Positions 44,486 to 64,000 are shown, counted from the first letter of the stretch. The stretch: DNA of 64,000 nucleotides from Sulfuricella sp. (GCF_035531155.1 NZ_DATKTK010000050.1:14294-78293), one strand, 5' to 3'. Made by a program: numbers and translations. The notes: generated by a model not told the origin, from the letters alone.

Positions 44486-45361
44486 TTATTGGCCACGGCG
44501 CACGACGATGAACACAGAAAAGGTCACGATGGACATGCCGGCGATCTTCTCGATGCCGAGCTTTTCGTCAAACAGCCATGCGGCCTCAAGTGCGGTGACG
44601 GCGGGCACCAGATAAAACAGGCTGGAAACTTTGTGGATCTCGCCGTGCTTGATGAGATAGTTGAGCAGCAGGATGGCGCCGATTGACAGCACGATGGCCA
44701 GCCAGAAGATGGCGAAGATCAGCTGATGGGTGAACTGGATTTCACGGCTTTCGAACAGATAGGTGCCGAGCCCGAAAATCACCACGGTGGAAAGGTACTG
44801 GAAGAACGCGCTGCTGAGGATTTCATTGTGGGCGCAGAATTTCTTCTGGTAGAGCGTCCCCGCCGTGATGCCCAGCAGTGCGATTACGGCGGCCCATGCC
44901 GCGTGCTGGTTGAACGGTGCCGCATGGTTGCTGCCGGCGGCGAAAATCAGGGTTAGCCCGAACAGCCCGAGCACCACGCCCAACCACTGCATGCGAGTGA
45001 CTCGCTCACCCAGCAGCAGTGGAGCGGAGATCGTGGTCAGCAACGGCTGCAACCCGACAATCAACGCGCACAGGCCGGCGGGCATGCCGGCCTTGATCGC
45101 GGTGAACACGCCCCCCAGATAGGCACCGTGGATCAGGCTGCCGCTGACCATCAAATGGAAGCGCTGGCGCCAGTTTGCCGGGGGAGCGGGTTTGAAGTAC
45201 GCGATCAGCGCGACGAGCAGAGCCAGCGTCAGCACGAAGCGCAGGAACAGCAGCGTGTAGGGCTCCGCGTAGGGCAAGCCGTATTTTGCGCCGATGAAGC
45301 CGGTGCTCCATAGCAGGACGAACAGCAGCGGAATGTTGGCGAGAAAGACCCGCTTAAGCAA
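44486..45361 (-). CDS. DMT/EamA family transporter
   Basis: LWSTGFIGAK, VGLQPLLT; about 10 hydrophobic segments. Confidence 0.9.
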   Translation of the reverse strand: MLKRVFLANIPLLFVLLWSTGFIGAKYGLPYAEPYTLLFLRFVLTLALLVALIAYFKPAPPANWRQRFHLMVSGSLIHGAYLGGVFTAIKAGMPAGLCALIVGLQPLLTTISAPLLLGERVTRMQWLGVVLGLFGLTLIFAAGSNHAAPFNQHAAWAAVIALLGITAGTLYQKKFCAHNEILSSAFFQYLSTVVIFGLGTYLFESREIQFTHQLIFAIFWLAIVLSIGAILLLNYLIKHGEIHKVSSLFYLVPAVTALEAAWLFDEKLGIEKIAGMSIVTFSVFIVVRRGQ

Positions 45362-46994
45362 TCTTGCCCAGCTTTCGGTCTTCCCGGATCATGTCGCTGG
45401 CTTTCTCGGCGAACATGACCACCGGCGAACTGGTGTTGCCCGAGGTGATGGCCGGCATGATCGATGCATCCACCACCCGCAGGCCGGCGATACCATGCAC
45501 GCGCAACCGCGCGTCGACCACTGCCATGGGGTCGGCTTTGAGGTCATTGCCCATTTTGCAGGTACCGACCGGGTGGAAAATGGTCGTGCCGATGTCGCCG
45601 GCCGCTTTGGCCAATTCTTCATCGCTTTGGCAGGCGGGGCCAGGCTTGAACTCTTCCGGCGTGTAGCGTTGCAAGGCCGGGGCGGCGACAATGCGGCGCG
45701 TCAGGCGCAGCGAATCTGCCGCCACTTTGCGGTCGCCCTCGGTGGACAGGTAATTGGGCTGAATAAGCGGTGCTTCGCGGCTGTCGGCGCTCTTGATGCG
45801 GATATGGCCGCGGCTTTCCGGATGCAGATTGCACACCGAGGCAGTAAAGGCCGGGAAATCATGCAGCGGATCGCCGAACTTGTCGAGCGACAAGGGTTGC
45901 ACGTGGTATTCCAGATTCGGAGTGACCTGGCTTTCATCCGAGCGGACAAAAGCGCCAAGCTGGCTGGGGGACATGGAGAGCGGGCCGCTCCGGAAGAGCA
46001 GATATTGCAGCCCCATGCCGAGCCGCCCCAGCAGGCTTCCGGCAGTTTCATTCAGGGTGCGGGTGTTTTTCACCTTGAACGCCATGCGCAGTTGCAGGTG
46101 ATCCTGGAGGTTCTCGCCGACCCCGGGCAGTTCGTGAATTACCGGGATGCCGTGTTGTTGCAGCAATGGAGCCGGGCCGATACCGGAACATTGCAGAATC
46201 TGGGGCGAACTCACTGCTCCCGCAGCGAGCAGGGTTTCGAGAGTGGAATCAGCCTGGAAGGCTTGATTGTTCTGCCAGAACTCAACGCCAATGACACGCT
46301 TGCCTTCGAAGCGCAGGCGCCGCACGACCGCGTTGGTGATGACTTTGATGTTGGGGCGACTCAGGGCGGGGCGCAGGAAACCTTTTGAGGCATTCCAGCG
46401 CACGCCGCGTTTCTGATTGACTTCGAAATAGCCACACCCCTCATTATTGCCGCGATTGAAGTCGATGACCTTGGGAATGCCGACCTCGGCGGCTGCATCG
46501 CGAAAGGCGTCGAGGATTTCCCACGACAACCGCTGCTGTTCAACCCGCCATTCGCCGCCGGTGTTGTGCATCTCGTCCGCGCCGCGCGCGTAGTCTTCAG
46601 AGCGTTTGTAGTAGGGCAGGACCTCGTCCCATCCCCAGCCGGGATTGCCCTGCGCCTGCCATTTCTCGAAATCGCGTACCTGGCCGCGCATGTAGATCAT
46701 GCCGTTGATCGATGAGCTGCCGCCGAGTACCCGGCCGCGGGGGTAGCCAATGGCGCGCCCGTTCAAGCCGGGTTCGGGCTCGGTTTTGAAGCACCAGTCG
46801 GTACGAGGGTTGCCGACGCAATACAGATACCCGACCGGAATATGAATCCACAAGTAGTTATCCTTGCCGCCCGCTTCGAGTAACAGGACCTTGATGTCGG
46901 GGTCGCTGGACAGGCGGTTGGCCAGTACGCAGCCGGCTGTTCCGCCGCCGATGATGATGTAGTCGTAAGAGCCGATCGAGGTATTCATGTTCAT
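45354..46994 (-). CDS. GMC-family FAD oxidoreductase (choline dehydrogenase-like; HpdH/DddA-type candidate)
   Basis: GGGTAG, LLEAG, GGSSSINGM, NLQDH, FHPVGTCKMG, VVDAS; WIHIPVGY segment differs from BetA as I recall it. Confidence 0.85.
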   Translation of the reverse strand: MNMNTSIGSYDYIIIGGGTAGCVLANRLSSDPDIKVLLLEAGGKDNYLWIHIPVGYLYCVGNPRTDWCFKTEPEPGLNGRAIGYPRGRVLGGSSSINGMIYMRGQVRDFEKWQAQGNPGWGWDEVLPYYKRSEDYARGADEMHNTGGEWRVEQQRLSWEILDAFRDAAAEVGIPKVIDFNRGNNEGCGYFEVNQKRGVRWNASKGFLRPALSRPNIKVITNAVVRRLRFEGKRVIGVEFWQNNQAFQADSTLETLLAAGAVSSPQILQCSGIGPAPLLQQHGIPVIHELPGVGENLQDHLQLRMAFKVKNTRTLNETAGSLLGRLGMGLQYLLFRSGPLSMSPSQLGAFVRSDESQVTPNLEYHVQPLSLDKFGDPLHDFPAFTASVCNLHPESRGHIRIKSADSREAPLIQPNYLSTEGDRKVAADSLRLTRRIVAAPALQRYTPEEFKPGPACQSDEELAKAAGDIGTTIFHPVGTCKMGNDLKADPMAVVDARLRVHGIAGLRVVDASIMPAITSGNTSSPVVMFAEKASDMIREDRKLGKIA

Positions 46995-47029
46995 GATGGT
47001 GGGCGAAGCCTCCGGTTAATTACCAAACA

Positions 47030-48253
47030 CTAGGCTAACGCCTCATCCAGCAGTTCGATCCAATGGCGCACCGGCAGGTCGGTGCCGCTTTGCAGGTGGG
47101 CCTGGCAGCCGATGTTGGCGCTGGCGATCTGCGCCGGGCTCCCGCTTTGCAGCGCATCCAGCTTGTTGCGCAGCAACTGCTGCGACAATTCCTTCTGCAG
47201 TATCGAATAGGTTCCCGCCGAGCCGCAGCACAGGTGTTTGTCCGCTACCGGCGTAAGCTCGTAGCCGGCCCTGGTCAGCAATTCCTCAATCACGCCGACG
47301 ATTCTTTGCCCGTGCTGCAAGGTGCAGGGGGAATGGAATGCCACCTTGCCGCGCGGGGCTGGCGAGAGCAGGCAGAACAGCCCGTCCTTTTCCGCAGCGA
47401 GAATCTCGCTCAGGTCGCGGGTGAGGCCGGAAATCCGTGCCGCTTTCCCGGCATAGGCCGGATCGTCGCGCAGCAGGTGGCCGTATTCCTTGACCATCGC
47501 GCCGCAGCCGCTGGCGGTCATCACCACCGCCTCCGTGCCTTGTTCCAGGTAGGGCCACCAGGCGTCGATATTGCGGCGCATGTAGTCCAGCCCTTCCGCA
47601 TGGGCGTTCAGGTGATAGCTGACCGCGCCGCAGCAGCCGGCTTTCTCGGCGCTGAACAGCGTAATGCCGAGCCGATCCAGCACCCGCGCAGCGGCGGCAT
47701 TGGTGTTGGGCGCCAAGCCGGGCTGCACGCAGCCTTCCAGCACCAGCATGGTGCGAGCATGTCGCGCGGTTGGCCAGGGTTTCGCCGGCCGGGCGATGGG
47801 CACTTCCTTTGCCAGCGCGCCTGGCAGCAGCGGGCGAAACAGGCGGCCGAGGGTGAGCAGGGAATTGAAGATGGCCGGACGGGGCAGCACCGCGCGCAGC
47901 AGCCTGCGCTGCACGGCCTGCCACGGGCTGCGGCCGATCTTTTCCTCGGCGATGGCGCGACCGATGTCCACCAGGCGGCCGTAGCGCACGCCGGACGGGC
48001 AGGTGGTTTCGCAGGAGCGGCAGGTGAGGCAGCGATCCAGGTGGAGCAGGGTTTTTTCCGTCACCTCGGCGCCTTCGAGCATCTGCTTAATCAGGTAGAT
48101 GCGTCCGCGCGGGCTGTCCAGCTCGTTGCCGAGCAGCTGGTAGGTGGGGCAGGTGGCGGTGCAAAAACCGCAATGCACACAGGCGCGCAGGATGGCCTCC
48201 GCCTCTTGGCCGGCGGCGGTGTGCTTGATGGAATCGACGAGATTGGTTTGCAT
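47030..48253 (-). CDS. glcF: Glycolate oxidase iron-sulfur subunit
   Basis: CVHCGFCTATC, CLTCRSCETTC, CCGSAG. Confidence 0.95.
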   Translation of the reverse strand: MQTNLVDSIKHTAAGQEAEAILRACVHCGFCTATCPTYQLLGNELDSPRGRIYLIKQMLEGAEVTEKTLLHLDRCLTCRSCETTCPSGVRYGRLVDIGRAIAEEKIGRSPWQAVQRRLLRAVLPRPAIFNSLLTLGRLFRPLLPGALAKEVPIARPAKPWPTARHARTMLVLEGCVQPGLAPNTNAAAARVLDRLGITLFSAEKAGCCGAVSYHLNAHAEGLDYMRRNIDAWWPYLEQGTEAVVMTASGCGAMVKEYGHLLRDDPAYAGKAARISGLTRDLSEILAAEKDGLFCLLSPAPRGKVAFHSPCTLQHGQRIVGVIEELLTRAGYELTPVADKHLCCGSAGTYSILQKELSQQLLRNKLDALQSGSPAQIASANIGCQAHLQSGTDLPVRHWIELLDEALA

Positions 48254-48262
48254 GTCGCTTAA

Positions 48263-48486
48263 TCCTAAAAACGGCGATTAACCACGAATGACACGAATGT
48301 TCACGAATAACCAAGAGTAGGCGCCTCTAGGCGACACGAAATAGTTAGAGACAATCATCGTGTCGTCTAGAGGCGCCTATTTTTGGCACCAAACAGGTGA
48401 ATCAGACTATCCATTATAACTAACTGATTATTAGTGAACATTCGTGTTTCATTCGTGTAAATTCGTGGTTAAAAGCTTTTTCTAGG
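48263..48486. repeat. Periodic-arm palindrome, CACGAAT subtype (copy 3)
   Basis: TTAACCACGAATGACACGAAT ... ATTCGTGTAAATTCGTGGTTAA with CCTAAAAA/TTTTTCTAGG outer ends. Confidence 0.9.
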
Positions 48487-49542
48487 TTAAAACGCCTGGT
48501 GCATGCGGCCGGGGTTGAGGATGCCGTGCGGATCGAAGGTCTGCTTCAGCCGCTGGTGCAGTTCCAGCAGAGGTGCGGACAGGGGATGGAACGGCTCGGC
48601 GCTGGGCTCCGGGCTGCGGAACAGGGTCGCCTGGCCGCCGAGCGCAGCCGCCGCCTGGCGGATGGTCGTCGCATCGGCGTCGCTCGCCAGCCAGCGCAAT
48701 GCGCCGCCCCACTCGACCAGTTGCCGTCCCGGCACGGCGATAGCCGGTGCCGTGGATGGCAGCGACAGCCGCCACAGCGTTTCGGCATGGAAAAACGGGT
48801 GGCGCTGCTCGCGCACGCTGTGCCAGAAACTGTCGGCATCTTCCACTATTTCGCCGCCGAGTTTTTGCCGTACCGAGCGCACCGCGGCGGAGGCGCCGGA
48901 AAGGCGCACGGTCAGCGCGCCTTCGTGGTAGCAGGTGGCGGACAGCGACAGCGGCTGCGCCGCCCAGCGATTCATCGCCTCGAGCGCCTCCCGCTCTGCC
49001 ATGCCGAAGCGCAGGGTCAGCTCTTCGGCCGGCAGCGGCAGGATCTTCAGCGACACTTCCAGCAGCAGCCCCAGGGTGCCGAGCGATCCGGCCATCAGTC
49101 GCGACACGTCGTAGCCGGCGACATTCTTCATGACCTGGCCGCCAAAGCGCAGCACCTCGCCCTTGCCGTCGATCATGCGCACGCCCAGCACGTAGTCGCG
49201 CACCGCGCCTGCATAGGCGCGGCGCGGCCCGGACAGCCCGGCGGCGACGCAGCCGCCGAGGGTCGCACCTGGGCCGAAATGGGGCGGCTCGAACGGCAGC
49301 ATTTGCCGGTTGGCCGCCAGCGCCGCCTCGATCTCGGCCAGCGGCGTACCGGCGCGGGCGGTAAGCACGAGTTCGGTGGGTTCGTAGGAGACGATGCCGC
49401 GACAAACGGTCGCGTCCAGCGTTTCGCCATGCGTAGGGCGGCCGTAGAACGACTTGCTGCCCGAGCCGAGGATGCGCAACGGGCGGCGATCGTGGCCGGC
49501 TTCGCGCACGGTCTGGCTGAATTGTTCGATGGTGTCCTGCAT
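48487..49542 (-). CDS. glcE: Glycolate oxidase FAD subunit GlcE
   Basis: YEPTELV, FEPPHF, GGQVMKNVAGYD; ATG 49542 (the longer ORF start lies in a repeat). Confidence 0.95.
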   Translation of the reverse strand: MQDTIEQFSQTVREAGHDRRPLRILGSGSKSFYGRPTHGETLDATVCRGIVSYEPTELVLTARAGTPLAEIEAALAANRQMLPFEPPHFGPGATLGGCVAAGLSGPRRAYAGAVRDYVLGVRMIDGKGEVLRFGGQVMKNVAGYDVSRLMAGSLGTLGLLLEVSLKILPLPAEELTLRFGMAEREALEAMNRWAAQPLSLSATCYHEGALTVRLSGASAAVRSVRQKLGGEIVEDADSFWHSVREQRHPFFHAETLWRLSLPSTAPAIAVPGRQLVEWGGALRWLASDADATTIRQAAAALGGQATLFRSPEPSAEPFHPLSAPLLELHQRLKQTFDPHGILNPGRMHQAF

Positions 49543-49550
49543 CGCTTTAA

Positions 49551-49726
49551 CCTTAAAACCGTAATTAACCACGAATGACACGAATGTTCACGAATGAACA
49601 CAAATAGTTAACAACAAATATCGCCTCACCAAACAGGTGAATCGGGTGAATTTCATTAATCCTTTGATTATTCGTGAACATTAGTGTTTTATTCGTGTAA
49701 ATTCGTGGTTAATCGCTTTTTTTAGG
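49551..49726. repeat. Periodic-arm palindrome, CACGAAT subtype (copy 4)
   Basis: Same arms as copy 3 with a shorter interior. Confidence 0.9.
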
Positions 49727-49742
49727 TTTATCTATAATCTTC

Positions 49743-51197
49743 TCAAAAACGGGGAATGTCGGGGAACGGCACCTGCCCGTGGTGCACGTGCATGCCACCG
49801 AATTCCGAGCAGCGGTGGGCGGTGGGAATTACCTTGCCGGGATTGAGCAGGCCGGACTGGTCGAACGCCAGCTTCACCTCGCGGAACCTCTGCAGCTCCT
49901 CGGGCTTGAACTGCGCGCACATCTGGTTGATTTTTTCGATCCCGACGCCGTGCTCGCCGGTGATGGTGCCGCCCACTTCCACGCATAGTTCCAGGATCTT
50001 GCCGCCGAGTTCCTCGGCGCGATGCCATTCGCCCGGCTGGTTGGCATCGTACAGGATCAGGGGGTGGAGGTTGCCGTCGCCGGCGTGGAATACGTTGGCC
50101 ACGCGCAGGCCGTATTCACGCGACAGCTCGTCGATGCGCCGCAGCACGTGGGTCAGCTCGCGGCGCGGGATGGTGCCGTCCATGCAGTAGTAATCGGGGG
50201 AGATGCGGCCCATGGCGGGGAAGGCGGCCTTGCGCCCGGCCCACAGCCTGAGACGATCCGTCTCATTCTCGGAGGTGCGCAGCGAGGTTGCGCCGCAGCG
50301 GGAGAGAATCGCCTGCATTTTGGCGATTTCCTCGGCGACTTCCTCCGGCGTGCCGTCAGATTCGCACAGTAGAATGGCTTCGGCGTCGAGGGGGTAACCG
50401 GCGTGGACGAAATCCTCTGCCGCCTGGATCGAGAGGCGATCCATCATTTCCAGGCCGGCCGGGATGATGCCGGCGGCGATGATCTCGCCCACCGCGGCGC
50501 CGGCCTCTGCCACCGTGTCGAATGCCGCCATCACCACCTGGGCGAGTTCGGGCCTGGGCAGCAGCTTTACCGTCACCTCAGTGATTACGCCGAGCATGCC
50601 CTCGCTGCCGGTGAACAGCGCCAGCAGATCGTAGCCGGCGGCGTCCATGGCCTCCGAGCCGATCTCCAGCAACTCGCCATCCATGGTGTAGGCGCGCAGC
50701 TTGAGCACGTTGTGGACGGTGAGGCCGTATTTCAGGCAATGCACCCCGCCGGCGTTTTCCGCCACGTTGCCGCCGATGGAGCAGGCGATCTGGCTGGATG
50801 GGTCGGGGGCGTAATAAAGGCCGTGCGGCGCCGCTGCCTCGGAGATGGCCAGGTTGCGCACGCCGGGCTGGACGCGGGCGATGCGGGCGAGGGGGTCGAG
50901 CGACAGAATGCGGTTGAACTTCGACAGGCTGAGCAGCACGCCGTCGGAGAGCGGCAGCGCCCCGCCCGACAGCCCGGTGCCGGCGCCGCGCGCCACCACC
51001 GGCACGTTTTCGCGGCGGCACAGCAGCAGGATTTCCCGCACCTGCTCCTCGGTTTCCGGCAGAACGACCGCCAGCGGCAGCTGGCGGTAGGCCGACAGGC
51101 CGTCGCACTCGAAGGGCTTGAGGTCCTCCTCCTCGAACAGCACTGCGTCGGAGGGGAGAATTCTCTGCAGCTGTTTTACCAGTTCATGCTTTTCCAT
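49743..51197 (-). CDS. glcD: Glycolate oxidase subunit GlcD
   Basis: ARGAGTGLSGG, PDPSSQIAC, HAGDGNLHP, GEHGVG. Confidence 0.96.
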   Translation of the reverse strand: MEKHELVKQLQRILPSDAVLFEEEDLKPFECDGLSAYRQLPLAVVLPETEEQVREILLLCRRENVPVVARGAGTGLSGGALPLSDGVLLSLSKFNRILSLDPLARIARVQPGVRNLAISEAAAPHGLYYAPDPSSQIACSIGGNVAENAGGVHCLKYGLTVHNVLKLRAYTMDGELLEIGSEAMDAAGYDLLALFTGSEGMLGVITEVTVKLLPRPELAQVVMAAFDTVAEAGAAVGEIIAAGIIPAGLEMMDRLSIQAAEDFVHAGYPLDAEAILLCESDGTPEEVAEEIAKMQAILSRCGATSLRTSENETDRLRLWAGRKAAFPAMGRISPDYYCMDGTIPRRELTHVLRRIDELSREYGLRVANVFHAGDGNLHPLILYDANQPGEWHRAEELGGKILELCVEVGGTITGEHGVGIEKINQMCAQFKPEELQRFREVKLAFDQSGLLNPGKVIPTAHRCSEFGGMHVHHGQVPFPDIPRF

Positions 51198-51235
51198 GGT
51201 CTCGGCGCCGAAATCGCGCTCCTTTCATTGCCAGC

Positions 51236-52540
51236 TTATTCCTTCGTACCGCGAAGCCTATGATACACCTCGGCCAGCGCCTTTTCGTCGCCGACGTTGC
51301 CGGGGAAAATCACCACCGGAATTTCGGGGAAGGCATGGTCGGCGGGGGTCAGCACCACGCTGCAGCCGGCCAGTATCTGCCCCGCCAGGCGTGTCGTGGG
51401 CAGGGCGAGCCCCTTGCTCAACATGTCGTTGGAGGTAATGCCGCCCTTGCTGATGATGAAGCCGATGGTGGCGGGCAGGCCATGCACCACGTCCATCAGG
51501 AAACCGGACACGTGCTCGCCGAACGCCAGGCGGGCGGCCTGGTCGGGAAACTGGCGTTCCACCCGGCTGGTGAACACCACCGGGGTCAGGCCATTCTGGT
51601 GCGCCTGGGCAACTTTCGCCAGCACTTCTTGTAGCAGGGCCGGGCTCTCTTCTGGCATGCGGCTAACATCCACTTCCACCGCTGCGATGCCTTCCTGCTG
51701 CAGCAATACCTGAAGCTGGTCGGTAGTCTTCTTGACGTGCGAGCCCACCACCACCACGCCTGGCCGGTTATTTTTGACATAGCGGTGCATGTCCTCGGCC
51801 GCAACTGGCTGCGGCGGCAATTTTGCCAGGGCGGTCAGCAGGCTGGCGGCGCTGCGGAACAGGAAACGCTTTCCCTGGCTGGCGGCCTGTTCCAGATCGT
51901 CGGCGAAGCGGTCGAGATCGGCCTGGATTTCGGCATCCACCACGCAGCAGGCATTGCCCGCAAGCGCCATCAGACGGTCGAGCGAGCCGGCGCGGATGTC
52001 GTTGAGGGTGAAGCGCACCACTTGATCGGCCTTGATGCGGCCTCGGGTTTTCTCTTCCACGTAGTCAGGCAGGTAGCTGTGGCGGTAGCCGAACACGGAA
52101 TCGCGGGCGAACTCGGTTTCGTGCACCGGCACTGGCTGGCCGCTTACCTTGAGATAGTGGATGCTGTCCACGGTGAAGCGGCCGCCCTCAAAAAAGGCGG
52201 GCACCAGGAAGTGGGCGTCGAACGGGCCCAGTTCCTCGGCCATGACGTCGGTTTCCACCGGATAGTGGCCGCGCAGGGTGGAGTCGGAGCGGCTGACGAA
52301 CAGCGCCGGCCGGCCGAACCCTTCCATCGCCAGCTTCAGGTTGTGGCACGTCTCGCGCGTCACCTGGCTGGCCTCGGCGGCGCCCATGCCGCGGGTATTG
52401 GTCAGCACGAACATCAGCGGGGAGGCATCGTACAGCCCCTGTTTCAGCGTCTCGACATCCCAGCGGGTGAGCAGCAGACTGCCATGCACCGTTTGCGAGC
52501 CGGTGGGGTCGTCGTCGAGGACTATGATTTTGGGTTGCAT
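51236..52540 (-). CDS. Four-carbon acid sugar kinase family (DUF1537)
   Basis: VLDDDPTG, SRSDSTLRGH, PAFFEGGR, SKGGITS. Confidence 0.88.
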   Translation of the reverse strand: MQPKIIVLDDDPTGSQTVHGSLLLTRWDVETLKQGLYDASPLMFVLTNTRGMGAAEASQVTRETCHNLKLAMEGFGRPALFVSRSDSTLRGHYPVETDVMAEELGPFDAHFLVPAFFEGGRFTVDSIHYLKVSGQPVPVHETEFARDSVFGYRHSYLPDYVEEKTRGRIKADQVVRFTLNDIRAGSLDRLMALAGNACCVVDAEIQADLDRFADDLEQAASQGKRFLFRSAASLLTALAKLPPQPVAAEDMHRYVKNNRPGVVVVGSHVKKTTDQLQVLLQQEGIAAVEVDVSRMPEESPALLQEVLAKVAQAHQNGLTPVVFTSRVERQFPDQAARLAFGEHVSGFLMDVVHGLPATIGFIISKGGITSNDMLSKGLALPTTRLAGQILAGCSVVLTPADHAFPEIPVVIFPGNVGDEKALAEVYHRLRGTKE

Positions 52541-52554
52541 CGAAATTCCTTTTT

Positions 52555-52626
52555 CACCGCAGAGGCGCGGAGGCGCTGAGAAAAACTAAACCCAACCGAT
52601 TGTTCGATCTCTGCGCCTCTGCGGTT
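52555..52626. repeat. Periodic-arm palindrome, CGCAGAG subtype (copy 5)
   Basis: CACCGCAGAGGCGCGGAGGCGC ... CTCTGCGCCTCTGCGGTT. Confidence 0.85.
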
Positions 52627-52632
52627 AAGTCA

Positions 52633-54855: not shown

Positions 54856-54912
54856 CTTCTTCTCCAGTAATCAGAAAACTGTTAGGCATGGCAGAACTTG
54901 TCTACCATTTAA

Positions 54913-54948: not shown

Positions 54949-55023
54949 AATAGTAGCAAAGCCCCCGGATAAATGCAACAGGCAAATCCTTGCTTCAGCA
55001 AGGAGATAGTTGCAGCGGGTAGC

Positions 55024-56616: not shown

Positions 56617-56639
56617 GGTCGTTTCCTTTCAAATGGGTG

Positions 56640-57587
56640 TCAGGCGACGCGGTTCTGCGCTTCGCCGCGCATGAACGCCTCGATGTTGTCGATCAACTGG
56701 TCGGCCAGGGTCTGCATCGCTTCCCGGCCCGACCAGGCGATGTGCGGCGTGAGGATGAAGTTGGGCAGGTCGAGGTCGAGCAGGGGGTTGCCTTCTCTGG
56801 GCGGCTCCTTGCCCAGCACGTCGAATCCGGCGCCGCCGATTCTGCCCGAATGCAGGACATCGAGCAGCGCCGCTTCGTCCACCAGACCGCCGCGGGCGGT
56901 GTTGATCAGCAGGGCGTGGGGTTTCATCCGGGCGAATTCAGCCGCACCGATCAGGTGGCGGGTTTGCTCGCTGAGGGGCAAGTGCAAACTGATCACGTCG
57001 CTTTCCTGCAGCACCGTGTCGAACGCGGTGTAGCCCGGGCGCACCTCGGCGGCACCCTTGTGCTCGGCGATCAGCACCTTCATGCCGAATGCCAGCGCGA
57101 TCTGTTCCACCGCCTGGCCGATGGCGCCGTGGCCGATCAGCCCCAGGGTGCTGCCGTGCAGGTCGCGCACCGGATGGGTGAACAGGCAGAACTGGTCGGC
57201 CCGCTGCCATTCGCCGTTGCGCAAGTCGGCGCGGAACGCCAGCAGGTTGCGGCGCAGCGCCAGCATCAGCATGAACACGTGCTCCGGCACGGTGTGCACC
57301 GAGTAGTTGCGGATGTTGGATACCACGATGCCGCGTTCGCGGCAGCAGGCGATATCCACGTTGTCGGTGCCGGTGGCGGCGGCGGCCACCATCTTCAGCT
57401 TGGGCAATTGCTCCAGCGTTTCCCGGCGTAGCGGCACCTTGTTGGTGATGGCGACAGTGGCCTCCATCAGCCGCGCCACGATCTGGTCGGCCGGCGTGGC
57501 AGGATACTCCTCCCACTGGTGATGGAAGGACGGGTGGCGGATGTCGGCGATGATGCTGTCGGAATCGAGAAAGACGATTTTTTCCAT
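56640..57587 (-). CDS. D-2-hydroxyacid dehydrogenase (glycerate dehydrogenase/hydroxypyruvate reductase-like)
   Basis: ATGTDNVD, GHGAIG, INTARGGLVDE, LTPHIAW. Confidence 0.85.
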   Translation of the reverse strand: MEKIVFLDSDSIIADIRHPSFHHQWEEYPATPADQIVARLMEATVAITNKVPLRRETLEQLPKLKMVAAAATGTDNVDIACCRERGIVVSNIRNYSVHTVPEHVFMLMLALRRNLLAFRADLRNGEWQRADQFCLFTHPVRDLHGSTLGLIGHGAIGQAVEQIALAFGMKVLIAEHKGAAEVRPGYTAFDTVLQESDVISLHLPLSEQTRHLIGAAEFARMKPHALLINTARGGLVDEAALLDVLHSGRIGGAGFDVLGKEPPREGNPLLDLDLPNFILTPHIAWSGREAMQTLADQLIDNIEAFMRGEAQNRVA

Positions 57588-57619
57588 GAGATTTGTCCTG
57601 GCTTTGATATTTCATAAAC

Positions 57620-57746
57620 TCACCGCGGAGGCGCGGAGGCGCAGAGAACGTAGTACCCAGAATTACGACAGGCTTAGCAAATAATAGCCCGAAGAAATTA
57701 GGGGTTTATTGTGCTTTTCCTCTGCGTCTCGGCGCCTCTGCGGTGA
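57620..57746. repeat. Periodic-arm palindrome, CGCAGAG subtype (copy 6)
   Basis: TCACCGCGGAGGCGCGGAGGCGCAGAG ... CTCTGCGTCTCGGCGCCTCTGCGGTGA. Confidence 0.85.
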
Positions 57747-57756
57747 AAAGTCCAAG

Positions 57757-58644
57757 CTAATCGCCGCCCATGCCGGACATCCGTTCCAGCACCTTGACCA
57801 CTGCAGAGGAATCCAGGTCAGCGTCGCCGCTGCCCATCAGGGCGTTGAGGTGCTGGGTGACCAGGGCGGCGGCAGGCAGCACCAGGCCGAGCTGGTGGGC
57901 GGTTTCCATGACGATGCGCATGTCTTTCTGGTGCAGGCCAACCTTGAAGCCGGGCCTGAAATCGTGGTCCAGCATGCGCTTGCCGTGCACTTCCAGTATC
58001 TTGCTGCCGGCGAAACCGCCGAGCAGGGCCTCGCGCACCTTGGCCGGGTCGGCACCGTTCTTGCGGGCGAAAGTCAGCGCTTCCGCCACCGCTTCAATAG
58101 TCACCGCCACCACGATCTGGTTGCATGCCTTGGCCACTTGGCCGGCGCCGTTGCCGCCGACGTGGACGATATTCTCGCCCATGCATTCGAACAGCGGTCT
58201 GACGCGCTCGAACACCTCCGGCTTGCCGCCCGCCATGATCGAGAGGGTGGCATTGATCGCCCCGGTTTCGCCGCCGGAAACCGGCGCGTCCAGCATCTCG
58301 ATGCCTTTCGCACTAAGTCGCTCGGCGAAAGCCTTGGTGGCGGTGGGGGAGATAGTGCTCATGTCGACCACTACCAAACCTGGCCGGGCGCTGTGAATGA
58401 TGCCCTGTTCGCCGAACACCACCGTTTCCACATCCGGGGTGTCGGATACGATGGTGAAGATCACGTCCGCGTGGGCTGCTACTTCCCCGGGCGTGGCGCA
58501 GGCGGTTGCACCTGCAGCCGTCAGCTGCTGCAGGGCTTCCGGGCGGCGCGCGTAGGCCCACAGCTTGTGCCCGCCCTTCATCAGGTTGAGGGCCATGGGG
58601 CGGCCCATGATGCCGGGGCCGATAAATCCGACATTGAATGACAT
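57757..58644 (-). CDS. glxR: HIBADH-family reductase, 2-hydroxy-3-oxopropionate (tartronate semialdehyde) reductase-like
   Basis: GPGIMG, DAPVSGG, KACNQ, FRPGF...HQKD. Confidence 0.75.
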   Translation of the reverse strand: MSFNVGFIGPGIMGRPMALNLMKGGHKLWAYARRPEALQQLTAAGATACATPGEVAAHADVIFTIVSDTPDVETVVFGEQGIIHSARPGLVVVDMSTISPTATKAFAERLSAKGIEMLDAPVSGGETGAINATLSIMAGGKPEVFERVRPLFECMGENIVHVGGNGAGQVAKACNQIVVAVTIEAVAEALTFARKNGADPAKVREALLGGFAGSKILEVHGKRMLDHDFRPGFKVGLHQKDMRIVMETAHQLGLVLPAAALVTQHLNALMGSGDADLDSSAVVKVLERMSGMGGD

Positions 58645-58674
58645 AAGTTTCTCTTAAGGGTTACGTATCGTTAA

Positions 58675-58874
58675 TCCTTAAAACGGCGATTAACCACGAA
58701 TGACACGAATTTTCACGAATAAACACGAATAGTTAGAGACAAACATCGTGTCGCCCAGAGGCGTCTACTTTTGGCGCCAAACGGGTGAATCAGCTAAGCT
58801 ATGATAATCTACTGATTATTCGTGAATATTCGTGCTTCATTCGTGTAAATTCGTGGTTAAAAGCTTTTTCTAGG
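58675..58874. repeat. Periodic-arm palindrome, CACGAAT subtype (copy 7)
   Basis: Arms and interior near-identical to copies 3 and 9. Confidence 0.9.
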
Positions 58875-59828
58875 TTAATGCATCAGCCACACCGTTACCG
58901 GCAGCGTCAGCCAGAACAGTACCGTGGTCCAGCCGATCAGCAGGGCGGCGGCCTCGGTGTCGAGATGAAAGCGGTCGGTCAGGATCAGCGCCGACATGAT
59001 GGTCGGCATGCCCGCTTCGACGATGGCGGCTTTCTGCGCCTCGCCCACCGGAGCGAACAGCAGCGACGCGGTGAGCGCCACCACCAGCGGCATCAGGGCG
59101 AGCTTGATGGCGGCCACGCCGAGAATGACTCCCTTGGGTTTCAGTTGCCGCCAGGGGATGGACAGCCCCAGCACAAACATCATGACCGGGATGGTGGCCT
59201 GGCCGATCATCTTGGCCGCATGGACCAGCGGCTCGAAAGCCAGTCCGCTCATCTGCAAGCCGGCTCCCGCAAAAAACGCCCAGATCGGCGGGATGCCGAC
59301 CAGTTGGCGCCATACCGGCGGATGCAGGCCGGCGGATTCAGGCGGGCCGAGGTGGGTGCAGACCCATATGCCCAGGCTCCAGAACAGCGGCATGGTCATC
59401 AGCATGTCGTTGAAGGCCGCATAGCGAGGTGCTTCGCTGCCATAGAGGAAGACCAGCACCGGCACGCCGATGTAGAAGGTGTTGCCGAACATGCCGCCCA
59501 CCAGCAAGGCGGCGCGCGTCCCGTTGTGCAGGTCGCGCCCGAACCGGGTGCGGTAGAGCAGCAGGTAGAGCACCGCGCCGGAGGTCAGGCCGCCGATACC
59601 GACCAGAAGGGGCACCGACAGCAGTCCGGGGGTGATCGGCGTGGCAACCGCAATGGAGAACAGAATGGCCGGGAAGAACAGGTTGAGCACCAGCCGGTTG
59701 AGCTGGATGCGCAAGGTCTTGCTGGAGATTTCCCGGTAATGGTTCGGCCAGACTGCGCCCACGCCGACCAGAATGGCGGCCGGCAGCATCACCTCGATCA
59801 TGAGTTTGACCAGATGGTTCAGGTCCAT
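58875..59828 (-). CDS. AEC (auxin efflux carrier) family transporter
   Basis: FFPAILF, FGNTFYIGVP, KLALMP, EAGMP. Confidence 0.85.
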   Translation of the reverse strand: MDLNHLVKLMIEVMLPAAILVGVGAVWPNHYREISSKTLRIQLNRLVLNLFFPAILFSIAVATPITPGLLSVPLLVGIGGLTSGAVLYLLLYRTRFGRDLHNGTRAALLVGGMFGNTFYIGVPVLVFLYGSEAPRYAAFNDMLMTMPLFWSLGIWVCTHLGPPESAGLHPPVWRQLVGIPPIWAFFAGAGLQMSGLAFEPLVHAAKMIGQATIPVMMFVLGLSIPWRQLKPKGVILGVAAIKLALMPLVVALTASLLFAPVGEAQKAAIVEAGMPTIMSALILTDRFHLDTEAAALLIGWTTVLFWLTLPVTVWLMH

Positions 59829-59832
59829 AATT

Positions 59833-60001
59833 ATCCTAAAAACCGCAGTTCATTAACCGCAAAGACGCGAAGGCGCAAAGAAAACAAGGACATAAGATCC
59901 ATCTGGTATTCACCTGTCCGGTGACTGGGCAGATTCCGATAACACATTGTTTTTCCTTTGCGTTCTTTGCGCCTTTGCGGTTCAAATGCTTTTTTTAGGA
60001 T
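59833..60001. repeat. Periodic-arm palindrome, CGCAAAG subtype (copy 8)
   Basis: ATCCTAAAAA...AACCGCAAAGACGCGAAGGCGCAAAG ... CTTTGCGTTCTTTGCGCCTTTGCGGTT...TTTTTTAGGAT. Confidence 0.88.
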
Positions 60002-60035
60002 TATTCCCTGAGCGAGGCGGCTGCCGTGATGACGT

Positions 60036-61538
60036 TTAGCCGAGCGTCGGCATCACCAGCGTGGAGGCGCTGCGCTCAGACACTTCCGGCCAGCGGCTGG
60101 TGATGGCCTTGGTGCGGGTGTAGAAGTACACGCCTTCCATGCCGTGCATGTGCAGGTCGCCGAACAGCGAGGACTTCCAGCCGCCGAAGGAGAAGAAGGC
60201 CATCGGTACCGGGATCGGCACGTTGATGCCGACCATGCCGACTTCGATCTCGTTCTGGAAGCGCCGCGCCGCCGCGCCGGAACTGGTGAAGATGGCGGTG
60301 CCGTTGGCGTAGGGGTTGCTGTTGACCAGGTTGATCGCCTCGTCGAAGCTGGCGGCGCGCAGCACGATCAGCACCGGGCCGAAGATTTCCTCGCGGTAGA
60401 TGGTCATCTCGGTGGAAACATGGTCGAACAGGGTCGGCCCGACGAAAAAGCCGTTCTCGTGGCCGGGCACCTTGATGCCGCGCCCATCCGTTAACAACTT
60501 TGCGCCCTGCGCCACGCCGCTGTCGATGTGGCCGACGATCTTGTCGCGATGCTGGGCTGAGATCACCGGGCCCATCTCGACGCCTTTCCTGTCGCCCGGG
60601 CCGACCACCAGCTTCTCGGCTCTTTCCTTCAGCTTGGCCACCAGCGCATCGGCCACGTCGCCCACCGCGACCACGGTGGAGATCGCCATGCAGCGCTCGC
60701 CGGCGGAGCCGTAGGCGGCGCCCATGATGGCGTCGGCGGTGAAGTCCAGCTCGGCGTCGGGCAGTACGATGGCATGGTTCTTGGCGCCGCCCAGGGCCTG
60801 CACGCGCTTGCCGTGGCGGGCGGCGGTCTCGTAGATGTGTTTGGCCACCGGCGTCGAACCGACGAAGGACACGGCACGCACGTCGGGGTGGATGAGCAGG
60901 GTGTCCACCGCTTCCTTGTCGCCCGGCACGACGTTGAAAACGCCGTCGGGCAGGCCCGCTTCCTTGAACAGCTCGGCCATACGCAGGCTGCACGAAGGCA
61001 CCTTTTCGGAAGGCTTGAGGACGAAGGTGTTGCCGCAGGCGATGGCGATGGGGAACATCCACATCGGCACCATCGCCGGGAAGTTGAACGGGGTGATGCC
61101 GGCGCATACCCCCACCGGCTGCAGCATGGAGTGGCAATCGACGCCGCGGCCGACGTTTTCGGCATGCTCGCCTTTGAGCAGATGCGGCGCGCCGACGGCG
61201 AATTCCACCACTTCGATGCCGCGCTGCACCGAGCCGGCGGCGTCTTCCAGGGTCTTGCCATGCTCTTCGCTGGCCAGTTGCGCCAGCTCGGCGCGGTGGG
61301 TTTCGAGCAGGTCACGGAACTTGTTCAGGATGCGGCTGCGGCGCAGGGGGGTGGTATCGCGCCAGGCTGGGAATGCAGCCTTGGCGGCGGCAACTGCGCT
61401 TTCCACATCCTCGCGGCTGGCCAGCGGCACCTGACGGATCGCTTCGCCGGTGGCCGGGTTGGTCACGTCTGCCAGGCGGTTGCTGCGGCTCTCGGTGCGC
61501 TGGCCGTTGATCCATAGGGTTAAGGTAGGCTTCGACAT
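60036..61538 (-). CDS. mmsA: CoA-acylating (methyl)malonate-semialdehyde dehydrogenase
   Basis: ITPFNFPAM, SFVGSTP, GGAKNH, GERCMA, EEIFGP, FGGWK.SLFGDLH. Confidence 0.93.
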   Translation of the reverse strand: MSKPTLTLWINGQRTESRSNRLADVTNPATGEAIRQVPLASREDVESAVAAAKAAFPAWRDTTPLRRSRILNKFRDLLETHRAELAQLASEEHGKTLEDAAGSVQRGIEVVEFAVGAPHLLKGEHAENVGRGVDCHSMLQPVGVCAGITPFNFPAMVPMWMFPIAIACGNTFVLKPSEKVPSCSLRMAELFKEAGLPDGVFNVVPGDKEAVDTLLIHPDVRAVSFVGSTPVAKHIYETAARHGKRVQALGGAKNHAIVLPDAELDFTADAIMGAAYGSAGERCMAISTVVAVGDVADALVAKLKERAEKLVVGPGDRKGVEMGPVISAQHRDKIVGHIDSGVAQGAKLLTDGRGIKVPGHENGFFVGPTLFDHVSTEMTIYREEIFGPVLIVLRAASFDEAINLVNSNPYANGTAIFTSSGAAARRFQNEIEVGMVGINVPIPVPMAFFSFGGWKSSLFGDLHMHGMEGVYFYTRTKAITSRWPEVSERSASTLVMPTLG

Positions 61539-61566
61539 CTTTCTCTCCATAAGTCTTGAATTATTT

Positions 61567-61764
61567 TAAAAACGACGATTAACCACGAATGACACGAATA
61601 TTCACGAATAAACACAAATAGTTAGAGACAATCATCGTGTCGCCTGGAGGCGCCTACTTTTGGCACCAAACGGGTGAATCAGGCTATTCATGCTAACTAA
61701 CAGATTATTCGTGAACATTCGTGTTTAATTCGTGTAAATTCGTGGTTAAAAGCTTTTTCCAGGA
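61567..61764. repeat. Periodic-arm palindrome, CACGAAT subtype (copy 9)
   Basis: Arms and interior near-identical to copies 3 and 7. Confidence 0.9.
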
Positions 61765-63075
61765 TTATTTATGTCCGGAAACCGTGGTGTAGCGGCAATG
61801 GGTTTCGCGGATCGCCAGTGCGCCGAACAGGCCGACCACGGCAAAGGCCAGCATGATGCCCAGGCCGATCTGATAATTCTGTTCCGAGTAGACCCGCGCA
61901 CCCGCCAGCAGCTTGCCGTCCCAGCCCTGATCCATGGCCCAGCCCACCAGGGGCTGCAGCACTGCCGCACCGAGGAAGGAGCCGGTGTTGATAACGCTGG
62001 TCGCCATGCCGGACAGGGCGGGCGGGTTCACTTCCTTGACGCTGGCCCAGGTCAGGGTGAAGCCGGAGGCGCTCAGCCCCATCATGGCAAACAGCGGATA
62101 GCTCAGGCCGGGCGGCAGATGCCATGCGAATACGATCGGCAGCCAGCACAGGACATATAGCGCAATGCCGCCGAGGATCACCGGCATGCGCTTGCCGAGC
62201 CTGTCCGACAACATGCCGGACAGCATCGCGCCGACGGCGAAGGAGAACAGCAGCAGGGTGGTGTGGTTGGCGGCGACGGCGCGCTCCATGCCGTGCACGT
62301 CGCGCAAATAGGGAATGGCCCACAGGCCGGCAAAGGCGAACAGGCTGCCGCCGATACCGAGGTTAGGCCAGAAACCGGGCCAGGTGGCGCGGTTTTTCAT
62401 GACCTTGAGCAGGCCGTCGTACCAGTGCCCGTGATGGCGCGGATGGGCTTCCTTGCCTTCCAGCTCGCGCATGGTCGGCAGGCCGGCCTCGCCGGGATGG
62501 CTGTGGACGAGAAACCAGACCAGCACGCCCAGCAGCAGGGAAAACAGGCCGACCGCAACGAACACGTTGCGCCAGGAGGTATGCGTCACCGCCCACACCA
62601 GTGGCGCGGCGGCAAGCACCGAGCCGAGGTTGCCGAGCAGGATCGACATGCCGCCGACGGTGCCGAAATGGCGGTCGTGGAACCAGACCGAGTTCAGTTT
62701 CATCAGCGAAATGAACATGGCGGATACGCCCAGGCCGACCAGCACCCGCCCCATCGAGGCGGCCGCGAGCGTGTCGGCCAGGCCGAACAGGAGCGAGCCG
62801 AGGCCGGCGACCAGGGCGCCGATGGCGACGATCTTGCGCACCCCCATCGTATCGGCCATGACCCCGATCGGGATCTGCATCACGGTATAGGTGTAAAAAT
62901 AGGCGGCGGCCAGGGCGCCCAGCGCCGCGCCGCTGGCCTGGAAGGATTGCTGCAGGTCGCCGGCGATCGCGGCAGGCGCCATGCGATGGAAGAACGCCAG
63001 CATGTAGCCCAGCACCACCAAGGTATAGCTGGTCCAGCGCAGGCGGCGCATGCGGGCGTGGATATGTGTGGTCAT
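61765..63075 (-). CDS. MFS transporter
   Basis: QIPIGVMADTMGVRK and GMLSDRLGKR loop motifs; about 12 TM segments. Confidence 0.9.
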   Translation of the reverse strand: MTTHIHARMRRLRWTSYTLVVLGYMLAFFHRMAPAAIAGDLQQSFQASGAALGALAAAYFYTYTVMQIPIGVMADTMGVRKIVAIGALVAGLGSLLFGLADTLAAASMGRVLVGLGVSAMFISLMKLNSVWFHDRHFGTVGGMSILLGNLGSVLAAAPLVWAVTHTSWRNVFVAVGLFSLLLGVLVWFLVHSHPGEAGLPTMRELEGKEAHPRHHGHWYDGLLKVMKNRATWPGFWPNLGIGGSLFAFAGLWAIPYLRDVHGMERAVAANHTTLLLFSFAVGAMLSGMLSDRLGKRMPVILGGIALYVLCWLPIVFAWHLPPGLSYPLFAMMGLSASGFTLTWASVKEVNPPALSGMATSVINTGSFLGAAVLQPLVGWAMDQGWDGKLLAGARVYSEQNYQIGLGIMLAFAVVGLFGALAIRETHCRYTTVSGHK

Positions 63076-63173
63076 GGATGAATTTCCACCTGGGCGCATT
63101 AGCTGCTATGCGCAGATTCAGTCAGCGGCCCGGAAATGTCCGGGCCGCGTTCAGCCGGCAGGGAAGAGGCTGG

Positions 63174-63896
63174 TTAATGTGCTGCACCCAGGTAGGCCGC
63201 TTTCACCGCCGGGTCGTTCTTCAACTGCTCCGCCGGGCCGTGGCAGGAAATCCGGCCGTTTTCCAGTACATAACCGTAATCGGCGACATTCAGCGCCGCC
63301 GCCGCAAACTGTTCGACCAACAGCATGGTGATGCCGCGCGCCTTCAACTCCCGGATGATGCGGAAGACTTCCTCCACCAGCAGGGGGGCCAGACCCATCG
63401 ACGGTTCGTCCAGCAGTAAGACGTCGGGGTTGAGCATCAGCGCGCGACCCATCGCCAGCATTTGCTGTTCGCCGCCGGACAGCGTTCCCGCCAACTGCTC
63501 GCGTCTTTCCTTGAGGCGCGGGAACAAGTCGAATATCCGGTTCAGGTCGCCCTGTACGTCGCCGCGCTCGCGGCCGAAGGTGAGGCGCGGAAATGCGCCG
63601 AGGAGGAGGTTGTCGGTTACCGACAGGGTGGAAAATACGCGCCGACCCTCGGGCGAGTGCGCCAGGCCGGTGCGGGCGATTTTGTGCGAGGCCATGCCGG
63701 TCACGTCTTTGGCGCCGAGGCGGATCTCTCCGCCGGTCGGCTTGATCATGCCGGAAACGGCGCGCATGGTGGTGGTTTTGCCTGCGCCGTTGGAGCCGAT
63801 GAGGGTGACTACCTTGCCCTGCGGCACGTCGATGGAAATTCCGTGCAGCACTTCTACCTTGCCGTAGGCGGCGTGTAAGTTTTTGATCTGTAACAT
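63174..63896 (-). CDS. Branched-chain amino acid-type ABC ATPase (LivF-like)
   Basis: GSNGAGKTT, LSGGEQQM, LDEPSMGLAP. Confidence 0.92.
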   Translation of the reverse strand: MLQIKNLHAAYGKVEVLHGISIDVPQGKVVTLIGSNGAGKTTTMRAVSGMIKPTGGEIRLGAKDVTGMASHKIARTGLAHSPEGRRVFSTLSVTDNLLLGAFPRLTFGRERGDVQGDLNRIFDLFPRLKERREQLAGTLSGGEQQMLAMGRALMLNPDVLLLDEPSMGLAPLLVEEVFRIIRELKARGITMLLVEQFAAAALNVADYGYVLENGRISCHGPAEQLKNDPAVKAAYLGAAH

Positions 63897-63906
63897 TGCG
63901 GGCCCC

Positions 63907-64000
63907 TTATGCTGCCTCGGCGCTGCCGCCAAGGTAGGCTTCGATCACTTTCTCGTCGGACTGCACTTCGGCCGGAGTGCCTTCTGCGATCTTCTGGCCG
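63907..64000 (-). CDS. C-terminus of a LivG-like ABC ATPase (partial)
   Basis: GQKIAEGTPAEVQSDEKVIEAYLG-stop. Confidence 0.85.
   Translation of the reverse strand, partial: GQKIAEGTPAEVQSDEKVIEAYLGGSAEAA

Follow-up and report, generated by a model that had tools for sequence, protein, structure and literature searches.

A phosphoketolase-like enzyme and a DUF1537 kinase found with glycolate dehydrogenase in Calvin cycle bacteria may mark a glycolate recycling route

RESULTS

Gene content of the locus

The DNA analyzed here is a stretch of 64,000 nucleotides from Sulfuricella sp. (NZ_DATKTK010000050.1, positions 14294 to 78293), referred to below as the window; it lies on contig C50 of a 3.46-Mb assembly (G000) whose completeness is rated 100%. 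An open reading frame (ORF) listing, together with NCBIfam and Pfam scans of the window, gave 14 complete consecutive genes on the minus strand (44486-63932). Five of them are our main subject: a gene for a 740-amino-acid phosphoketolase-like, thiamine diphosphate (ThDP)-dependent enzyme, here called PKL; a gene for a DUF1537 kinase, here called K1537; and the contiguous genes glcD, glcE and glcF, which are predicted to encode glycolate dehydrogenase (GlcDEF). At its low-coordinate border the run meets convergent plus-strand genes for an aminotransferase, hom and thrC (Pfam).

A preliminary description of the window had seen 15 consecutive minus-strand genes here. Fourteen are complete; the 15th, a livG-like partner of livF, is only partial, being truncated by the window end. 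The gene functions named in that description were borne out by the ORF listing and domain scans, and it had left the two oddest proteins, PKL and K1537, unnamed. The four transporter types that it listed are present (EamA/DMT, AEC, MFS and livF-like ABC), and the malate synthase is indeed of type A, with models of the G type scoring below 30 bits. By themselves, the transporters, the GMC oxidoreductase, mmsA and aceB of the cluster are ordinary. A promoter and terminator scan of the run gave no signal exceeding that of shuffled sequence.

A conserved five-gene core

We compared the locus with those of 33 other genomes of the same order that carry PKL, and all counts out of 33 refer to these. 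K1537 directly follows PKL in 32 of the 33 loci, the 33rd being cut by a contig end, and glcDEF lies directly downstream of K1537 in 27. All seven proteobacterial carriers that lack an adjacent glcDEF encode a true GlcF elsewhere in the genome (7/7). GlcF was present in every PKL carrier examined and in only one of eight PKL-free relatives within the family. Judged by this gene order, the conserved core is made up of five genes, PKL, K1537, glcD, glcE and glcF. Thermithiobacillus has the core as a clean five-gene operon; the PKL gene of Thiobacillus shares 4 bp with that of K1537, and an IclR regulator gene is divergent there. An IclR gene lies upstream of PKL in 17/33 loci and is missing at the window locus; a 50%-identical IclR homologue is found on another contig of this genome (C43, 133007-133744).

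The other genes of the run accompany the core much less often. A homologue of tartronate semialdehyde reductase (TSR) is encoded just upstream of PKL in 8/33 loci, together with a D-2-hydroxyacid dehydrogenase (2HADH) in 6 of those 8. The mmsA gene is near the core in 6/33 loci, an AEC homologue in 4/33 (beside TSR), and aceB adjoins PKL in 3/33. The GMC oxidoreductase and EamA genes, which make up the distal end of the accessory block described below, accompany the core in no other genome than the sister G018. The coordinates of all features are collected in Table 1.

Two further observations concern the glc genes of other loci. One Thiobacillus locus (L023) has a glyoxalase/VOC-family gene between glcE and glcF and a gene for a metallo-beta-lactamase-fold protein after glcF (Pfam). 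At L072, L092 and L094, the matched genes are spaced widely enough to accommodate additional ones.

Table 1. Genes and repeats of the minus-strand run and its edges (positions in the window)
Feature	Coordinates	Strand	Basis
EamA/DMT transporter	44486-45361	minus	NCBIfam/Pfam
GMC oxidoreductase	45354-46994	minus	NCBIfam/Pfam
glcF	47030-48253	minus	NCBIfam 682 bits, cutoff 333
glcE	48487-49581	minus	NCBIfam 550 bits, cutoff 284
glcD	49743-51197	minus	NCBIfam 859 bits, cutoff 897 (marginally below)
K1537, DUF1537 kinase	51236-52540	minus	PF07005 (SBD_N) and PF17042 (NBD_C)
PKL, 740-amino-acid phosphoketolase-like ThDP enzyme	52633-54855	minus	Weak XFP_N, XFP and Transket_pyr
aceB, malate synthase A	55024-56616	minus	TIGR01344 800 bits, cutoff 594
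D-2-hydroxyacid dehydrogenase (2HADH)	56640-57587	minus	
Tartronate semialdehyde reductase (TSR)	57757-58644	minus	TIGR01505 378 bits, cutoff 341
AEC-family transporter (permease)	58875-59828	minus	
mmsA, CoA-acylating (methyl)malonate-semialdehyde dehydrogenase	60036-61550	minus	738 bits, cutoff 448
MFS transporter	61765-63099	minus	
livF-like ABC ATPase	63174-63932	minus	
Dispersed palindromic repeat, ~180 bp, thrC-side edge of accessory block	44256-44434		Inverted-repeat search
Further palindromic copy	48311-48386		
Further palindromic copy	49546-49731		
Further palindromic copy	52553-52628		
Further palindromic copy	58680-58876		
Further palindromic copy	59831-60001		
Further palindromic copy	61567-61763		

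Distribution of the core across genomes

Our sample of the order comprised 401 genomes and that of the cyanobacterial phylum 151; the unpublished genomes G026, G294 and G379, none of which carries PKL, enter only the tallies of gcl (the gene for glyoxylate carboligase) and RuBisCO. PKL was found in 34 of the 401 order genomes, and RuBisCO is present in 33 of these 34, compared with 189/401 overall. The gcl gene was found in 51/401 genomes, with zero overlap with PKL. Fisher tests at the genome level gave P values of 7e-11 for the link to RuBisCO and 0.003 to 0.008 for the exclusion of gcl; at the genus level, the values were 3e-5 and 0.05. Related genomes are not independent of each other in such tests.

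A species-genome scan returned at least 564 PKL loci, including one in Candidatus Nitrotoga and many in cyanobacteria (Nostoc, Tolypothrix, Microcoleus, Pseudanabaena and Gloeobacterales), the latter at 66 to 70% identity. Overall, the cyanobacterial PKL orthologues, including those of Nostoc and Anabaena, are 64 to 70% identical to their counterparts in Betaproteobacteria. PKL is present in 48 of the 151 cyanobacterial genomes, and K1537 (57 to 69% identity) is present in the same 48 (48/48); in the 103 PKL-free cyanobacterial genomes, no homologue exceeds 54% identity to K1537. GlcF was found in all 48 carriers versus 24 of the 103 PKL-free genomes, and gcl scored above the cutoff in none of the 151. 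The PKL and K1537 genes are usually unlinked in cyanobacteria, and we discarded their neighbors there as uninformative, PKL lying by genes for a Uma2 nuclease, COP23 and defense functions and K1537 by minCD. By this comparison, PKL and K1537 are co-inherited and dependent on GlcF being present, and they are confined to RuBisCO carriers (33/34 in the order sample).

The phosphoketolase-like enzyme

PKL fails every phosphoketolase model, scoring 89 bits against the NCBIfam cutoff of 962, and transketolase models give at most 44 bits against cutoffs of 488 to 788. A Pfam scan detected neither XFP_C nor Transketolase_N in the protein. The family is isolated: in a search of 1.84 billion representatives, its members were at least 56% identical to each other and at most 29% identical to everything else. 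The closest relatives are from Sulfuricella sp. (97% identity), and the family has named members in Thiobacillus, Sulfuriferula, Sulfurirhabdus, Thiobacter and Thermithiobacillus. In a phylogenetic tree PKL forms a tight clade at the end of a long branch; the cyanobacteria are one group within it that branches in a species-like order and has Gloeobacterales at its base, and this branching order suggests old vertical descent.

When an AlphaFold model of PKL (pLDDT 79.8) was searched with Foldseek, phosphoketolase was the best match (TMq 0.68, 17 to 20% identity) and transketolase the next (0.57 to 0.62). The motifs of the pyrophosphate-binding (PP) domain are of the transketolase type, with SGHPGG replacing GHWG and PAGPLGQG replacing EGGELGY. 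The active site resembles that of phosphoketolase: 10 of the 13 pocket residues listed for the Bifidobacterium enzyme (PMC10547157) are retained, namely, H64, H97, H142, G155, H320, E479, Y501, Q546, N549 and H553. The changes are H548 to an invariant Arg522 and Q321 to Asn322, with S440 being ambiguous. The invariant equivalents in PKL are H80 (H64), H108/109 (H97), H147 (H142), H321 (H320), E459 (E479), Y481 (Y501), Q520 (Q546), N523 (N549), H527 (H553) and K577 (K605). K605, which is also kept, is a residue that we take to belong to the pocket, and the roles of the pocket residues are likewise presumed here. As in phosphoketolase, PKL has Gly at the position of transketolase His461 and Asn at that of Asp469, residues that presumably bind phosphate and read the substrate hydroxyl, respectively. 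On these comparisons, we assign PKL to a third branch of the transketolase/phosphoketolase superfamily and do not regard it as an Xfp isozyme. Since the genome has a canonical Xfp (1500 bits; contig C66, 38947-41334), PKL is not the cell's phosphoketolase. Just downstream of xfp, at 37506-37753 on C66, there are two short acetate kinase fragments (42 and 19 bits), possibly what is left of an xfp-ackA pair.

In the literature, sll0529 of Synechocystis and alr1850 of Anabaena are discussed under the name "Pket2" as a divergent second phosphoketolase that is unverified (PMC7744508, PMC11257934); alr1850 is annotated "transketolase." Cyanobacterial orthologues of PKL are widespread, and the PKL family is probably the cyanobacterial Pket2 (sll0529). 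A simple account of the locus would be that glycolate is handled by an ordinary route of GlcDEF plus malate synthase and that chance has placed two further genes, for a second isozyme of phosphoketolase and for an unrelated sugar acid kinase, in the same island. The malate cycle is reportedly a proven salvage route in Cupriavidus necator, according to work by Claassens et al. in 2020. Databases label the 740-amino-acid protein "phosphoketolase," and the presumed cyanobacterial counterpart is treated as Pket2 in the papers cited above. We nevertheless give this account very little credence: the pairing is nonrandom, being adjacent in 32/33 loci and co-occurring in 48/48 genomes when unlinked; PKL misses the phosphoketolase cutoffs by a wide gap and lacks the EGGELGY signature; a canonical Xfp is already present; and most carriers have no malate synthase.

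The DUF1537 kinase

Both Pfam domains of K1537 are full length (PF07005, 196 bits, 1e-57; PF17042, 127 bits, 1e-36), and the genome contains no second DUF1537 gene. It falls into no characterized specificity group (DtnK, OtnK), scoring 75 bits against 450 for the DtnK equivalog. Identity to E. coli YgbK/OtnK is only 27% (37 bits), and we ruled out K1537 as an OtnK orthologue on that ground. Its nearest relative outside its own clade is the kinase domain of a plant L-threonate protein, with 37% identity over the full length.

One metagenomic protein, P0271 (1191 amino acids), carries both a PKL part and a kinase part. We rejected it as a Rosetta stone fusion of PKL and K1537; its PKL portion extends only to residue 657, and ~85 unrelated Arg/Gly-rich residues separate it from the kinase, so the protein is probably a frameshift artifact.

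Five PKL-free cyanobacteria (G442, G457, G514, G535 and G546) have a more distant K1537-like kinase (42 to 54% identity), and a high-scoring GlcF is also present in three of them (G442, G457 and G535). This lineage of kinases may exist independently of the ThDP partner.

Inventory of the rest of the genome

The host had been proposed to be a Calvin cycle organism, and the genome agrees, with RuBisCO large-subunit genes at three loci at least and gph (phosphoglycolate phosphatase) present. Absence of RuBisCO, or a complete gcl pathway elsewhere, had been named as grounds for abandoning a salvage role; RuBisCO was found, and neither gcl nor hyi was found anywhere in the genome. The best genome-wide match to TIGR01504 scored 338 bits against a cutoff of 711 and is acetolactate synthase-like. 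Whole-genome searches also found no homologue of a Hyi/OtnI-type isomerase, no class I glycerate kinase, no pta and no true isocitrate lyase; ackA is present, with its intact copy on contig C3, so that of the pta/ackA pair only ackA was recovered.

The sole MOFRL-type glycerate-2-kinase-like protein has 629 amino acids and is fused to a mannosyl-3-phosphoglycerate phosphatase domain (contig C4, ~56034-59197, L007). Because of the fused phosphatase and an adjacent glucosyl-3-phosphoglycerate synthase-like gene, we assign it to a compatible-solute (glucosyl/mannosyl-glycerate) set. It was all that a genome-wide search for gcl, hyi or glycerate kinase outside the cluster yielded, and we set that explanation aside. 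The idea that gcl is encoded elsewhere was thus not supported in a genome rated as complete, and because gcl is absent genome-wide, replacement of its step by uncharacterized enzymes is a live option. The comparison of genomes favors the latter proposal, in that PKL and K1537 form a fixed pair that is tied to glcDEF and RuBisCO and was never found with gcl.

Structure of the locus in related genomes

The gene content of the run is far from what chance would produce: the full run recurs in one sister genome (G018) at 93 to 96% nucleotide identity, and other genomes hold parts of it; it is thus present in two of the six genomes of the genus, this one and one of five others. In the sister genome G292, thrC is followed by a 1.2-kb gap with nothing between and then by the MFS gene (89% identity). 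Because G292 joins thrC directly to the MFS gene, the 12 genes from EamA to mmsA (44486-61550) form an accessory block; by the same comparison, the MFS and livF genes are taken to be the ancestral neighbors of thrC, outside the block. In G076 the same site holds thrC, liv genes and a glcDEF that is divergent, with neither PKL nor K1537.

Palindromic elements of ~75 to 200 bp occupy most of the intergenic gaps of the cluster (gaps of 160 to 230 bp). These stretches match dozens of sites in G292 at 93 to 96% identity, and because of those matches we regard them as dispersed repeats like repetitive extragenic palindromes (REP) or miniature inverted-repeat transposable elements (MITE). Two palindromic repeats border the 17-kb accessory block. 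The sister genome insertion, the repeat-filled gaps and the mosaic identity rule out one 19.5-kb operon, and the single 19.5-kb supercluster of the preliminary description gives way to a strain-variable block of 12 genes between thrC and MFS/liv.

In two genomes of a different family, G226 and G141 (L042 and L043), the proteins from livF to K1537 are 70 to 93% identical to those of the window and those of glcDEF only 55 to 70%. This pattern resembles what a transfer between families, followed by recombination with its junction between K1537 and glcD, would leave behind. Congeners of G226 and G141 carry PKL at 67 to 71% identity.

An accessory block is what is usual for niche-specific catabolic islands, and its presence in two of six genomes of the genus would suit an island that serves not phosphoglycolate salvage but the uptake and catabolism of external C2 to C4 acids, in mixotrophy or cross-feeding. 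The substrates would be glycolate, glycerate or tartronate, malonate or 3-hydroxypropionate, or products of beta-alanine or valine, imported by the transporters and processed by GlcDEF, TSR, 2HADH, MmsA and malate synthase A. The four transporter genes of the run fit such a function, as do the recurrence of the AEC permease beside TSR in other loci and the presence of mmsA, which has no role in textbook phosphoglycolate salvage. We judge it improbable, however, since most core loci carry no transporter, the MFS and liv genes are ancestral neighbors outside the block, EamA-type proteins are mostly exporters (family annotation), and the core is confined to RuBisCO carriers, cyanobacteria included.

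DISCUSSION

Possible routes for glyoxylate

What becomes of the glyoxylate made by GlcDEF can be approached through the enzymes that the PKL carriers possess. A malate synthase of any type is encoded in 11 of the 33 carriers and in none of the other 22. Because only these 11 have one, malate synthase is a lineage-specific accessory, and we rejected it as a general exit for glyoxylate. By these numbers, together with the presence of an adjacent aceB in 3/33 loci, the malate synthase branch is a local addition and not central to the system. With neither malate synthase nor gcl, the 22 hosts therefore have no textbook glyoxylate sink. TSR scored above the cutoff in 22/33 carriers, all of them gcl-free and often with the gene within 20 kb of PKL, and was missing in 8; its retention in gcl-free carriers implies a need for a source of tartronate semialdehyde. 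Because of the strict dependence among PKL, K1537 and GlcF and the missing sinks, the pair most likely takes glyoxylate as its entry substrate.

We lean, if only slightly, toward reading the region as a strain-variable glycolate/glyoxylate island in a Sulfuricella-like Calvin cycle sulfur oxidizer, in which PKL and K1537 handle the glyoxylate made by GlcDEF. 2-Phosphoglycolate derived from RuBisCO would be dephosphorylated and then oxidized to glyoxylate, on which PKL would act through ThDP-dependent C-C chemistry. K1537 would phosphorylate the hydroxy or keto acid so formed, and a phosphorylated C3 or C4 compound would carry the carbon back into central metabolism. In this genome, side exits and transport would be added by MmsA, malate synthase A and the permeases.

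The version of this scheme that we prefer, which we put forward tentatively and with the chances rather against it as a whole, has PKL standing in for glyoxylate carboligase. PKL would make tartronate semialdehyde and CO2 from two molecules of glyoxylate, the neighboring TSR or 2HADH would reduce tartronate semialdehyde to glycerate, and K1537 would be the glycerate kinase. Alternatively, K1537 could phosphorylate hydroxypyruvate to 3-phosphohydroxypyruvate, which would lead to 3-phosphoglycerate. A second version, to which we give a small chance in its entirety, would have 3-oxo-tetronate arise when PKL transfers a ketol unit to glyoxylate; K1537 would yield the 4-phosphate of this compound, and loss of CO2 would give dihydroxyacetone phosphate.

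Several points weigh against the reading that the pair handles glyoxylate, and against its preferred version. Eight of the 33 carriers have no recognizable TSR. Cyanobacteria possess the GLYK glycerate kinase, and because there are other glycerate kinases both in this genome and in cyanobacteria, a role as glycerate kinase fails to explain the strict pairing of K1537 with PKL. Glycine formation could be an alternative exit for glyoxylate. The exclusion of gcl is weak at the genus level, with a P value of about 0.05. Expression of sll0529 barely differed between low and high CO2, with a ratio of 1.10 (PMC7744508). Lastly, the phosphoketolase pocket is mostly kept in PKL, which favors acyl-phosphate chemistry over ligation.

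This last point leads to another explanation, in which PKL is a phosphoketolase-type enzyme with a new substrate. With phosphate, it would cleave or decarboxylate a keto acid already phosphorylated by K1537, for instance a keto-tetronate or hydroxypyruvate; acetyl phosphate would be formed together with glyoxylate or CO2, and the pair would salvage C3/C4 acid by-products of the Calvin cycle or make acetyl units. The glcDEF genes would lie alongside since both activities feed the glyoxylate pool, and the aceB product would join glyoxylate and acetyl-CoA to form malate; aceB is directly upstream of PKL in the window. Both the fold of PKL, nearest to that of phosphoketolase, and the nearly intact pocket, in which K605 and the putative phosphate site (Y501/N549) are kept, are consistent with this explanation, as is the relationship of K1537 to plant L-threonate kinase domains (37% identity), its nearest outsiders; ackA is present, but pta was not found in the genome. 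Alr1850, a presumed Anabaena counterpart of PKL, reportedly lacked Xfp activity in the work of Moriyama et al. in 2015, a result that is silent on other substrates. There is no OtnI/Hyi-type isomerase and no obvious source of tetronate in obligate autotrophs, and glyoxylate produced in the 22 carriers without malate synthase would have no sink. That the pair strictly depends on GlcF and excludes gcl fits glyoxylate consumption better than its production. We consider acetyl phosphate formation unlikely, and the carboligase-type scheme is still the version that we prefer. In its broadest form, namely, that PKL and K1537 make up a previously unknown, ancient glyoxylate-consuming route that is a nonhomologous substitute for glyoxylate carboligase and later steps, the proposal is a speculative one, and we would not be surprised to see it fail.

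Significance

Little is known of how gcl-free Calvin cycle bacteria dispose of phosphoglycolate carbon, and engineers have made bypasses of photorespiration a major target. Our literature search found no published description that links DUF1537, a phosphoketolase-like enzyme and glcDEF, and the PKL-K1537 pair may mark an undescribed route of glycolate recycling. The pattern turns a vague gap into a testable question about two enzymes in tractable organisms (Synechocystis, Anabaena and Thiobacillus). If a new route of glyoxylate assimilation were confirmed, a natural photorespiratory pathway would be added and a "phosphoketolase" annotation would be corrected on thousands of genes; the route would be common to about one-third of the sampled cyanobacterial genomes (48/151) and to many sulfur- and nitrite-oxidizing autotrophs. 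Pket2 would gain a real function. The cyanobacterial protein sll1981, once taken to be gcl, is now treated as a 2-oxoglutarate decarboxylase (PMC5460508), and the pair might fill the carboligase gap left by that reassignment. If PKL instead makes acetyl phosphate from an acid sugar phosphate, this would be a new phosphoketolase reaction.

Comparison with known systems

A close parallel is the salvage of phosphoglycolate in Cupriavidus necator, where, according to Claassens et al. in 2020, GlcDEF is reportedly followed by the glycerate pathway (gcl, hyi, tsr and glycerate kinase) and the malate cycle. Like that organism, the host of the present locus is a Calvin cycle chemolithoautotroph with GlcDEF, TSR and malate synthase and with gph elsewhere in the genome. 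It differs in having no gcl, hyi or class I glycerate kinase, with PKL and K1537 encoded at the place in the operon where one would look for those steps, and in having a malate synthase of type A, which is absent from two-thirds of the core carriers. Set against the bacterial glycerate pathway (gcl-hyi-glxR-glxK), the genome has TSR and lacks gcl, hyi and a dedicated glycerate kinase; as for the malate cycle, it has malate synthase A without a true isocitrate lyase. The E. coli glc operon (glcDEFGBA with GlcC) also differs from the locus in the type of malate synthase, which is A here, and NCBIfam and Pfam scans found neither a lactate permease-type (GlcA-like) transporter nor a GntR regulator within the run.

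PKL shares with Xfp (Bifidobacterium 3AHC and 3AI7, cyanobacterial 8IO8) the three-domain ThDP fold and most pocket residues. Unlike Xfp, to which it is 17 to 20% identical, it is shorter by ~60 to 90 residues, has no detected XFP_C and coexists with a canonical Xfp. It belongs to the same superfamily as transketolase and has similar N-terminal motifs, but it has no Transketolase_N match and has Gly at the His461 position. The Pket2 literature treats sll0529 as an Xfp isozyme, with no mention of a kinase partner or a link to glcDEF.

The DUF1537 acid sugar kinases described by Zhang et al. in 2016 are said to include OtnK/YgbK, DtnK, DenK and LtnK. K1537 resembles this group in having both Pfam domains at full length, the comparison system in E. 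coli being ygbJKLM; it differs in that OtnC, OtnI, PdxA2 and a RuBisCO-like protein are not encoded nearby, its partner being a ThDP enzyme. In plants, a DUF1537 domain is part of an LtnD-DUF1537-aldolase threonate protein (PMC12540250). We ruled out the 2HADH of the cluster as the newly described L-threonate 3-dehydrogenase, since that enzyme is a short-chain dehydrogenase/reductase (SDR) and belongs to another family.

PKL can also be set beside Gcl (TIGR01504), of which it would be a functional equivalent only by hypothesis. Both enzymes are ThDP dependent, and PKL, whose action on glyoxylate is hypothetical, occupies a complementary set of genomes. Gcl is a member of the acetolactate synthase-type superfamily and PKL a member of the transketolase type.

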